This document shows positions 18,021 through 19,878 of a stretch of 36,125 nucleotides of DNA, piece after piece (the stretch's first letter is position 1; every line of letters begins with the position of its first letter). Location of the stretch: NCBI GenBank assembly GCA_038520555.1, contig JBCBLB010000010.1, forward strand, positions 1-36,125, written 5' to 3'. Both the position numbers and the translations under genes were made by a program. Below the pieces are notes generated by a model that searched no databases, was not told the DNA's origin, and saw nothing but the letters and a program-made list of their open reading frames with translations. The DNA is from Myxococcota bacterium. Lineage in GTDB: Bacteria > Myxococcota_A > UBA796.

Positions 18021-19082
18021 ATGCTCACCCAGGTCCGATTCCAGAACATCCGCGCCCTCGCCAATTTCCGCCTCAACCTACAGCCGCTCACCGTCCTGGT
18101 CGGGCCAAACGCATGTGGCAAGAGCACGGTTCTCCATGAAATTGAACGCCTGTGCCGATTCACTCACCGGAATCCACACCCGACTTTCGTGGGTGGTCCG
18201 AACCGAATCGACATACCCCCGATCACATCCGGGCGGATCGGTGCTCAATCCTGGGAAGGGAAGATGTCTTCACAGTCCGTATCAATTTCGATTCCCCCTA
18301 CCCCTCCTGATCAAATGAAGATTGATATTCAACTTGACAATAATGGTAAAAAAGAAGAAATTCTATTTCAAGATGGTTCTTATAATGGAAATGAAGAGAG
18401 TGTTCTCAGAGTATTATATGATTTCTCCTGGCGGGTACAGCAGTTGATATTGGAGCGACGCATGATCCTGAGACCATCACCTGTCAACGCATCGATGACG
18501 CGTTTAGAATCTTCAGGGTTTGGGTTGGCGACGTTGCTCCTTCACCTTGCCTCCAATCACACAGAGGCCTACCTGAAACTCCAGAAAGATCTGGCTGCTG
18601 TTGTCCCCGGCTTCCAGCGATTGTATGTCAAACAGATCGGTAAAAGTGGTCACACATACTATGGACTTGAACTTGTATTTAATGGCGCTGGACAGATCTC
18701 TGCAGAGTATGCGAGCGAGGGAACACTGTTCGCCCTCGGACTCCTCGCCGCGCTTCATTCGCCAGAGATGCCCACGATCGTCCTCCTCGACGACCTGGAT
18801 CGCGGACTCCATCTCTCCGCACAGTACGAACTGGTCGAAGCGATCCGGCGCGTGCAAGCACAACGGCCTGAGCTTCAAGTGATCGCGACGAGCCATTCTC
18901 CAGTTTTGGTGGACAGCTTCCGCGCGGAAGAAGTGCGGGTGATGAGCCTTGATGAGAATGGACATGCGCAGGCCCGCCCGCTGACCGAGATGCCTGACTT
19001 CCCGAAGTGGTCGCGGGCCCTTCAGCCCGGAGAGATGTGGGCGAACTTCGGCGAGAAGTGGGTCACCGAAGATGCCCGATGA
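18021..19082 (+). CDS. ABC-type ATPase of the AAA_21/AAA_15 (OLD/AriA/PtuA-like) family
   Basis: N-terminus MLTQVRFQNIRALANFRLNL...; Walker A GPNACGKST; signature-like SEGTLFALGLLAAL; Walker B/D-loop IVLLDDLDRGLH; H-loop motif ATSHSP. GGAG 5 nt upstream of the ATG. Contains a strongly AT-rich internal segment (~18300-18430). Confidence 0.85.
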   Translation: MLTQVRFQNIRALANFRLNLQPLTVLVGPNACGKSTVLHEIERLCRFTHRNPHPTFVGGPNRIDIPPITSGRIGAQSWEGKMSSQSVSISIPPTPPDQMKIDIQLDNNGKKEEILFQDGSYNGNEESVLRVLYDFSWRVQQLILERRMILRPSPVNASMTRLESSGFGLATLLLHLASNHTEAYLKLQKDLAAVVPGFQRLYVKQIGKSGHTYYGLELVFNGAGQISAEYASEGTLFALGLLAALHSPEMPTIVLLDDLDRGLHLSAQYELVEAIRRVQAQRPELQVIATSHSPVLVDSFRAEEVRVMSLDENGHAQARPLTEMPDFPKWSRALQPGEMWANFGEKWVTEDAR

Positions 19083-19878
19083 GCCCCTCCGGGTGCAGCT
19101 CGCCGGTGAAGACGCCGCCCACGGCCTGCTCCTCCAACGATTGACGGATACGGTCCTCAAGGACGCCCTCTACGTCAAAGACTTGAACCACCTCCGCGTC
19201 TTCGTCGATGCGAGCAGCGGCGGCCTACCCTCCCCCTACTTCTCGACCCGCAATGCGACGGGCCGGTTGAAGGAAGAACGCGGTATCCGACCTGGGCGCC
19301 CCTACTATCGAAGCCGACGGCTGTTCGGCCAACCGGTCGGAACAGCGGCCGAACTGGTCGATGCAGTCGACCTCATCCTCCTGACGCAGGAGAACATCGC
19401 GGCGATCCTGCTGCTCGTCGATGAAGACGGCAGCCCCACGCGCGTCGCCGACGTCCAACGAGCGCAGCGCTACTATGACGAAGAAACCCAGCACGTTGTT
19501 ATCCTTGGGCTTTGTGTCCCAACCGCGGAAGGATGGCTGGTCCCCATCATCGGACAGGTTTTCCCTGAACGTGCTGCCCGTCTGAAGAGAATCCTGAAAT
19601 TCGATCCGCTCATCGCTCCCGAGCGACTGACCAGCAAACCCCGCACGAAAGACCACCATGCAAAGCGCGTCCTGAACGCATTGCTTGATGAGGCAGGGAA
19701 GCCGCTCCAAAACCAGAAGACCCACACCCCTCCGAGAGATCGCGTCGAGGACGCGTTGATCGACGTTCACATCGATCTGAAGCCGCTGATCCGGCTGACG
19801 AAGTGCGGGCTCGGTGGATTCATCGCCGCCCTTCAGCAACGACTGGTGCCGTTGGTGGAATCCCGTTCCACCCCGTAG
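19072..19878 (+). CDS. TOPRIM-like partner protein (DUF4276/DUF4435-like), overlapping the ATPase gene by 11 nt
   Basis: Its start ATG (19072) lies inside the ATPase stop region (TGA 19080-19082), which implies translational coupling. N-terminal LRVQLAGEDAAHG resembles the first TOPRIM strand (hhhVEG.TE). A later acidic strand LLLVDEDG resembles the DxD metal-binding motif. A Lys/Arg-rich segment lies near the C-terminus. Confidence 0.7.
   Translation: MPDEPLRVQLAGEDAAHGLLLQRLTDTVLKDALYVKDLNHLRVFVDASSGGLPSPYFSTRNATGRLKEERGIRPGRPYYRSRRLFGQPVGTAAELVDAVDLILLTQENIAAILLLVDEDGSPTRVADVQRAQRYYDEETQHVVILGLCVPTAEGWLVPIIGQVFPERAARLKRILKFDPLIAPERLTSKPRTKDHHAKRVLNALLDEAGKPLQNQKTHTPPRDRVEDALIDVHIDLKPLIRLTKCGLGGFIAALQQRLVPLVESRSTP

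Follow-up and report, generated by a model that had tools for sequence, protein, structure and literature searches.

An overlapping gene pair for an ABC ATPase and a predicted TOPRIM nuclease in a Myxococcota contig: a divergent OLD-like candidate defense module

The gene pair and its ATPase

The window analyzed here is a 36,125-bp contig of a Myxococcota metagenome-assembled genome (MAG), which carries an overlapping pair of genes, termed A and B, on its forward strand. Gene A (18021–19082, ATG start) encodes a 353-amino-acid (aa) ABC ATPase of the OLD-ABC type (AAA_21/AAA_15), the predicted sensor or regulator. Gene B (19072–19878, ATG start; protein NCBI AAFV53_01815) encodes a 268-aa protein with a predicted TOPRIM-like core and a helical C-terminal domain, a predicted OLD/AriB-type nuclease and the predicted effector. 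The ATG of B lies 11 nucleotides (nt) ahead of the end of the TGA stop codon of A (sequence GAAGATGCCCGATGA), giving an 11-nt overlap at 19072–19082 (ATGCCCGATGA) between the end of A and the start of B. The open reading frames (ORFs) are exactly those of an initial annotation of the locus, which had proposed an overlapping two-gene module. Because of the overlap, co-transcription of both genes is implied and their translation is probably coupled.

An overlap of 8 or 11 nt is kept in five independent loci, three from metagenomes (L001/L002, L003 and L004/L005, with the overlap recorded in L001, L003 and L004) and two from MAGs (L006 and L007). Across these loci A is 42–58% identical and B 36–50% identical. 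This recurrence of the overlapping pair identifies both ORFs, as judged from sequence conservation, as genuine genes rather than chance ORFs.

Protein A was assigned to the ABC/AAA_21 ATPases in the initial annotation, and Pfam agrees. AAA_21 (PF13304) is matched at E = 1.2e-23 with 85.1 bits (cut-off 27) and AAA_15 (PF13175) at E = 2.1e-15 with 57.7 bits (cut-off 32.1), both above the gathering score. The top PADLOC model for A is HEC-01A (PDLC04183; 8.8e-32), and ten more HEC-01A models match. The next models are PDC-M07A (6.6e-26), AriA (1.4e-23; 3.5e-17 for a second AriA model) and mad3 (7.8e-22), with further matches to PDC-M25A, PDC-M31A, AbiLi (2.1e-19), PtuA and NsnB (7.8e-14). A scores far under the cut-offs of the NCBIfam models for MAD3, PtuA and RecF. 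Among solved structures, PtuA and the Thermus OLD are closest to A in sequence.

The motifs that had been quoted for A are all present. The Walker A motif or P-loop, GPNACGKST, spans residues 28–36 (18102–18128), and its G28, N30, G33 and K34 are invariant in the 12 ATPase partners that were aligned. The ABC signature-like motif SEGTLF occupies residues 232–237 (18714–18731), with S232, G234 and T235 invariant in the same 12 proteins. Walker B and the D-loop (IVLLDDLDRGLH) follow at residues 253–264 (18777–18812), of which LLDDLDRGLH makes up residues 255–264. The H-loop, ATSHSP, lies at residues 289–294 (18885–18902); its T290, H292 and P294 are invariant in six close orthologs. All four elements (Walker A, the signature-like SEGT, Walker B/D-loop and H-loop) are conserved across the 12 partners, and A, as read from these motifs, has the complete nucleotide-binding site of an ABC ATPase.

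The usual position of the catalytic glutamate in A is occupied by Asp258. In the alignment, the residues after Walker B read DDLD in the clade of the window, DDIE in the ATPase of locus L010 and ENLE in those of L009 and L022. The Asp-Glu dyad of the family's ATPases is thus non-canonical at each of these places (window, 18777–18812; L009, 7008–7985; L010, 6907–7998; L022, 312–1313), whereas cyanobacterial ATPases with a DUF4276 partner retain the canonical DEPE. A change from DE to EN in Walker B, as in some ATPases of this family, has also been described for NsnB of the Menshen system (PMC12065111). By comparison with degenerate ABC sites in general, Asp258 suggests slow hydrolysis, with A acting as an ATP switch and not as a motor.

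Residues 46–150 of A (18156–18470), between the P-loop helix and the remaining core, form a hypervariable insert. Among six orthologs the mean pairwise identity of this segment is 0.26, compared with 0.64 for the N-terminus and 0.62 for the C-terminus. Its DNA has a guanine–cytosine (GC) content of 0.454 inside a contig of 62% GC. The insert is a candidate trigger-recognition region. From its position it may be equated with the ABC 'Insert 1' (Payne et al., bioRxiv 10.1101/2024.01.29.577857; for the AriA IS1, PMC11464382). The low GC content suggests that the insert was exchanged, or that it evolves under constraints other than those on the ATPase core.

Protein B and its sequence family

Protein B gave no match in Pfam, PADLOC, NCBIfam or PHROGs at E <= 1. 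A search of PDB sequences at E <= 10 yielded nothing meaningful, the sole match being MG377 at 0.35, and a profile of 129 relatives of B gave only a spurious PDB match to a designed repeat protein. The proposed TOPRIM-like character of B was not confirmed by any HMM library; its support comes from the predicted structure and from which residues are invariant. The suggested resemblance to DUF4276 or DUF4435 partners was not recovered, as B matched none of PF14103, PF14491 and PF13707 in Pfam at E <= 1.

An AlphaFold model of B computed from 4 sequences was mediocre, with a pLDDT (predicted local distance difference test score) of 73.7. The model computed from 129 sequences (m2d8d902a57e5) reached a pLDDT of 95.0 and a predicted template modeling score of 0.92. 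Its secondary structure has a TOPRIM-like α/β core at residues 6–161 (19087–19554), built from b1 (6–12), a1 (15–33), b2 (42–44), b3 (111–117), a3 (123–138), b4 (142–148) and a4 (152–161), interrupted by an insertion of roughly 45 residues (45–90). A helical C-terminal domain at residues 165–266 (19564–19869) holds Lys198 (codon 19663–19665) and Arg199. The TOPRIM glutamate, Glu13 (codon 19108–19110), comes directly after strand b1, and Asp117-Glu118-Asp119 (19420–19428) forms the DxD motif that ends strand b3. Thr151-Ala-Glu153-Gly-Trp155 (19522–19536) starts the helix after b4 and is predicted to provide a metal-B ligand. The two motifs previously quoted for B, LAGEDAAHG and LLLVDEDG, are found at residues 10–18 and 113–120, respectively. 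A glutamate after b1 and a DxD after b3, both expected of a TOPRIM domain, are therefore present in the model and in the alignment. The glycine expected after strand b2 is absent; position 46 of B is Asp (Gly in 84 of the 129 relatives).

The best PDB neighbor of the model is PH0156, with 168 residues aligned; HHpred reportedly ranks PH0156 first among the matches to a lactococcal AriB. The model also aligns with the TOPRIM and helical C-terminal region of Burkholderia (Bp) OLD over 156 residues and with Ts OLD at 17% identity. The experimentally established catalytic set of Bp OLD comprises E400, E404, D455, D457, T506, E508 and K562 (PMC6755086), and that of AriB comprises E26, D30, D88, E90 and E122 (PMC11464382). 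In sequence order, E13 of B corresponds to AriB E26 and Bp OLD E400, and H17 is the counterpart of Bp OLD E404. D117 and D119 correspond to D88/E90 of AriB and D455/D457 of Bp OLD. The spacing of T151-x-E153 parallels that of T506 and E508 in Bp OLD, with E153 also paralleling AriB E122. K198 is proposed as the equivalent of K562, the catalytic lysine in the helical domain of Bp OLD. By sequence, the family-invariant E13, D117-x-D119, E153 and K198, with H or D at position 17, reproduce the two-metal set of OLD and AriB in order.

Conservation was counted over an alignment of 129 full-length members of the B family. D117, E153 and W155 are present in all 129, K198 in 128, D119 in 127 and R199 in 112. 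Of the 126 members ungapped at position 13, 114 have E there and 12 have D, and position 17 is H in 76/129 and D in 40/129.

A word-index search with B found only three homologs, and their alignment seeded an exhaustive HMMER search. The latter recovered 429 cluster representatives among 1.84 billion at E <= 1e-3, with 81 at <= 1e-10; word-index searches, with 4 and 13 proteins, had undercounted the family. Nearly all members are 240–290 aa long, and they occur in Myxococcota, Planctomycetota and many metagenomes. A locus search with 14 B-family sequences returned only 3 genome loci, and tblastn of B against plasmids gave zero matches.

When the 129 relatives were scanned singly, some reached models of named TOPRIM-type proteins. 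Five PADLOC models of HEC-01B were matched by 24, 12, 6, 4 and 3 members, respectively (best E 9e-6; single relatives 1e-2 to 1e-5). PDC-M25B models were matched by 9 and 5 members and PDC-M31B models by 3 and 3 (best 7e-8). DUF4276 was matched weakly by 6/129 (best 1.6e-4), RloB by 1/129 (0.0034) and MADS4 by 1/129. These matches are weak and span the region from the DxD to the ExW. The models concerned are the TOPRIM-type partners of exactly those ATPase families that A matches.

DUF4276 (PF14103) was examined further as a home for B. Profile–profile comparison with hhalign was marginal, with E = 0.034 and 0.051 against 116 proteins and 0.18 against 4, in a comparison set that represents one narrow cyanobacterial DUF4276 clade, and the reciprocal hmmsearch was negative. 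On this ground B is placed by sequence in a separate family of the TOPRIM/OLD-like superfamily, outside DUF4276, DUF4435 and RloB.

Named systems and genomic surroundings

The description of the pair as a split OLD/PARIS-like candidate holds for the split OLD-like ATPase and TOPRIM arrangement. It does not extend to membership of PARIS, as DUF4435 and AriB models do not match B and AriA is not the best model for A. The initial annotation could not match the pair confidently to a named system; A is closest to HEC-01A, and B matches no model.

HEC-01 is the 'Hma-embedded candidate 01' of PADLOC, made up of an ABC ATPase (HEC-01A) and a TOPRIM protein (HEC-01B). In the PADLOC candidates HEC-01, PDC-M07, PDC-M25 and PDC-M31, as in the window, a gene for an ABC ATPase precedes one for a small TOPRIM-type protein. 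The A component matches HEC-01A, but B and its close clade give no match to HEC-01B or to any B-component model of the PDC-M candidates at E <= 1. The HEC-01B profiles have 197–218 positions, and the B of the window is about 50 aa longer. The initial annotation had regarded the pair as compact, possibly a distinct minimal variant; its size is ordinary next to HEC-01, MAD3 and DUF4276-type pairs. Like the HEC and PDC candidates, relatives of the window pair are embedded in other defense systems, and such embedding is the criterion that defined the HEC and PDC candidates (bioRxiv 10.1101/2024.01.29.577857). No phage protection by HEC-01 was seen in E. coli (bioRxiv 10.1101/2024.01.29.577857), and no member of the immediate HEC-01/PDC-M group has a demonstrated function.

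PARIS is also a split pair, of the ABC ATPase AriA and the DUF4435 TOPRIM nuclease AriB. AriA models match A but rank under HEC-01A and PDC-M07A. AriA is a protein of about 53–55 kDa with the insertions IS1 and IS2 (PMC11464382), compared with 353 aa for A, and to judge from size A would have little room for both insertion sequences. B matches neither DUF4435 (PF14491) nor the PADLOC AriB models, although its acidic residues stand in the same order as E26, D30, D88, E90 and E122 of AriB. The substrate of AriB is tRNA-Lys. PARIS is triggered by the BREX inhibitor Ocr, and one relative of the window pair is embedded in BREX.

OLD nucleases and Gabija GajA have the same ABC ATPase and TOPRIM domains, but fused in one polypeptide. 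In sequence order, B parallels the OLD set of E, the E+4 position, DxD, T-x-E and the lysine of the helical domain. Assignment to class 1 or class 2 OLD or to Gabija was rejected, since A and B are two separate ORFs and the pair is not flanked by the UvrD-like helicase gene expected for class 2 OLD and Gabija. A retron-associated (class 3) OLD was likewise rejected, the window having no reverse transcriptase gene, no Rfam match and no tRNA.

Other systems combine an AAA_15/21 ATPase with a small partner of the TOPRIM superfamily, namely Mad3 with the DUF4276 protein Mad4 in MADS, AbiLi with the RloB-like AbiLii in AbiL, and NsnB with the DUF4276/RloB-type NsnC in Menshen (PMC11464382, PMC12065111). 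MADS was discarded because NF047739 (MAD3) gave 84.7 bits against a cut-off of 420 and the window has no other MADS genes. AbiL was discarded with AbiLi far under HEC-01A and no match of B to RloB (PF13707). For Menshen, the upstream gene is an opposite-strand homolog of the major vault protein (MVP) and not the DUF262 gene NsnA, the NsnB match is only 7.8e-14, and the N-terminal inPIN domain of NsnC is absent from B, in which the TOPRIM core starts at residue 6. The nearest annotated plasmid relatives of A are from cyanobacteria (23–25% identity over the full length); their ATPase genes overlap by 4 nt with the genes that come next, which are annotated 'DUF4276 family protein'.

An overlapping AAA_21 ATPase gene precedes B in every relative examined, and the pair is kept strictly as a unit while its flanks vary. 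The flanking genes are unlike in each locus (TrmD/RimM, OmpA/EF-G, Ser/Thr kinase/serpin or Uma2/TonB receptor). Defense genes next to three relatives were identified with PADLOC models. In L010, from Rubinisphaera sp., the pair lies within BREX in the order BrxC (1464 bits), PglX (1573), A, B, PglZ (971) and BrxL (733). In L020 it lies within DISARM, between DrmD (9.5e-78) and DrmMI (5.4e-80). In L022 an AbiEii toxin gene (2.6e-66) adjoins the pair.

In the window, the pair sits between two genes of opposite strand, the MVP homolog at 15025–17868 and a convergent gene at 19944–27068 with lamin-tail (LTD) and MopE-type repeats. The GC content at third codon positions is 0.58 in A and 0.73 in B, compared with 0.82–0.86 in the flanking MVP-like and giant genes and the MetRS gene. 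This difference suggests that the pair was acquired horizontally. Insertion scars and repeats on either side of the cassette were searched for, with only short, chance-level matches as the outcome.

The 152-bp intergenic region upstream of gene A (17869–18020), from which the MVP-like gene diverges, is the presumed promoter region. Its GC content is 0.546, compared with 0.62 for the window. A scan for the sigma-70 consensus found zero sites in it, and a purine-rich GGTGAGGAG stretch lies at 17993–18001. Between B and the convergent gene, a GC-rich, terminator-like hairpin of 8 G-C pairs (19897–19917) lies 19 nt past the stop codon of B; the scoring placed it, together with a T-rich tail, on the minus strand.

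Several neighboring genes were characterized in passing. The 947-aa bacterial MVP homolog (15025–17868, minus strand, divergent from gene A) matches MVP_shoulder (1.7e-19), Vault_4 (5e-5) and Vault_3 (5.5e-5). The 2374-aa protein encoded at 19944–27068 (minus strand, convergent with B), scanned over its first 600 and its last 600 residues, carries LTD domains at the N-terminus (2.1e-25) together with numerous Cys/Asp repeats of the MopE 'putative metal-binding' type (1.9e-41). A 722-aa protein (1162–3330, minus strand) contains an eCIS core domain (PF13699, 3.3e-11), named for extracellular contractile injection systems, and a 695-aa protein (10258–12345, minus strand) contains Sortilin/Vps10-BNR repeats (1.3e-19). 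Three large ORFs of the window, at 7471–9198 (575 aa), 27065–28585 (506 aa) and 33811–35517 (568 aa), gave no Pfam match.

The loci of the relatives offered further observations. The BrxL gene of L010 (11113–13434) encodes a BrxL–kinase fusion, with a C-terminal Ser/Thr protein kinase domain (about residues 530–735) that matches PD-T4-6, mad6 and Stk2. L009 (5802–12117) and L022 (312–3021) are related contigs with a common dnaB-alr-mlaE-ABC backbone and unlike cargo upstream of dnaB, the cargo being A-B with Uma2 and a TonB receptor gene in L009 and, in L022, A-B with the AbiEii toxin gene plus a small adjacent ORF. The site looks like a variable integration hotspot. L007/L023 and L008 are MAG contigs labeled 'uncultured Enterobacterales', with 68–73% GC and genes for MopE/FG-GAP repeat proteins as well as for a serpin and a Ser/Thr kinase. 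The taxonomic label is likely mistaken, and the contigs look Myxococcota-like. In L023 (931–5901), four tightly packed co-directional genes lie upstream of A-B and end 10 nt before gene A. They encode a 618-aa Ser/Thr kinase followed by proteins of 416, 336 (weak LysM) and 285 aa without a Pfam match, and are absent from the window.

Proposed function and competing explanations

Taken together, the reading of the initial annotation is in large part borne out: the pair is a split OLD-like candidate defense module of the HEC-01/PDC-M/PARIS kind. It is most likely, with a probability of about 0.7, a self-contained and horizontally mobile OLD-like module, an ABC ATPase paired with a TOPRIM nuclease, that acts in defense against phages or mobile elements. 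If the analogy with PARIS, Septu, Gabija and OLD holds, A would dimerize or oligomerize, would hold or allosterically restrain B, and would use its variable insert to sense an infection cue. B would then be released or activated as A binds or hydrolyzes ATP. B, in turn, may cleave nucleic acid with two Mg2+ ions and stop the infection, possibly by abortive infection. Its substrate could be DNA, which OLD and GajA cleave, or tRNA, the target of AriB.

An unlikely alternative is a selfish, toxin–antitoxin-like addiction module, with B as a toxic nuclease, A as its ATP-dependent neutralizer and loss of the pair killing the cell, and with no dedicated anti-phage role. The compact overlapping operon, its variable flanks and atypical composition would suit such a module, as would the Pfam description of AAA_21 as a 'putative AbiEii toxin, Type IV TA system', the AbiEii toxin gene next to one relative and the failure of HEC-01 to protect E. 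coli. Nevertheless, relatives lie between core genes of BREX and DISARM, a pattern that is used for predicting defense genes, and the characterized pairs of ATPase and TOPRIM protein (PARIS, with Gabija and OLD as fusions) are defense systems. The two explanations also overlap, toxin–antitoxin action and abortive-infection defense not being mutually exclusive.

It is improbable that B is not a nuclease at all and serves as a ligand-binding adaptor or regulator of the ATPase, with a generic Rossmann/flavodoxin-like or MID-like fold whose acidic residues bind metal or nucleotide without cleavage (compare RecR, a non-catalytic TOPRIM protein). Structural matches of B to such generic folds do occur. 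They span only about 110–125 core residues, as opposed to the 168 aligned with PH0156 and the 156 with Bp OLD. Moreover, the invariant residues over 129 divergent relatives are exactly those of the OLD-type catalytic site (E, DxD, E and K) and sit, as expected, where b1, b3 and b4 end, and relatives of B reach the HEC-01B, PDC-M25B, PDC-M31B, DUF4276 and RloB models.

A housekeeping DNA-repair pair, such as RecF (ABC ATPase) with RecR (TOPRIM) or an SbcC-type complex, shares the domain combination and would account for weak N-terminal matches of A to recF (TIGR00611, 2.3e-7), SMC_N and AAA_23, but is hardly credible given that the recF match, confined to residues 2–46, scores 30.3 bits where the cut-off is 172, that the family is rare (429 among 1.84 billion), that the composition of the window pair is atypical for the host, and that relatives are found inside BREX and DISARM. 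Grouping with RecF in matching synteny, the outcome that the initial annotation had named as contrary to its proposal, was not found; there is no synteny, and the flanks differ in every locus.

Within the preferred reading, that of a defense module, a more specific and rather doubtful version can be sketched. The pair might be a PARIS-like 'guard' that is repeatedly inserted in BREX and DISARM, in which an ATP switch impaired in hydrolysis (the catalytic-Glu position being taken by Asp or Asn) binds phage anti-restriction proteins through its insert, hypervariable and of foreign composition, and releases an OLD-type nuclease that current models do not recognize. If this were true, the pair would stand for a new OLD-like class, validated in function, that is triggered by a logic of its own and may act on a new substrate.

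Pairs made up of an ABC ATPase with a TOPRIM protein, such as OLD, Gabija and PARIS, are a major theme of prokaryotic immunity, and most of the split relatives (HEC-01, the PDC-M candidates and the DUF4276 pairs) are candidates only. The locus described here is a divergent branch of this known class with an effector that current libraries do not model, and is an incremental extension rather than a new principle. It belongs to a sizeable family of pairs whose effector side escapes Pfam, PADLOC, NCBIfam and PHROGs. Because B is invisible to the model libraries, PADLOC-type tools that require both genes would, to go by the model scans, probably miss the pair. The analysis supplies an alignment of the B family for model building and a high-confidence model of the effector. 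Candidate residues of the mechanism are E13, D117, D119, E153 and K198 in B and K34 and D258 in A, and the natural pairs embedded in BREX and DISARM hint at where the triggers lie.

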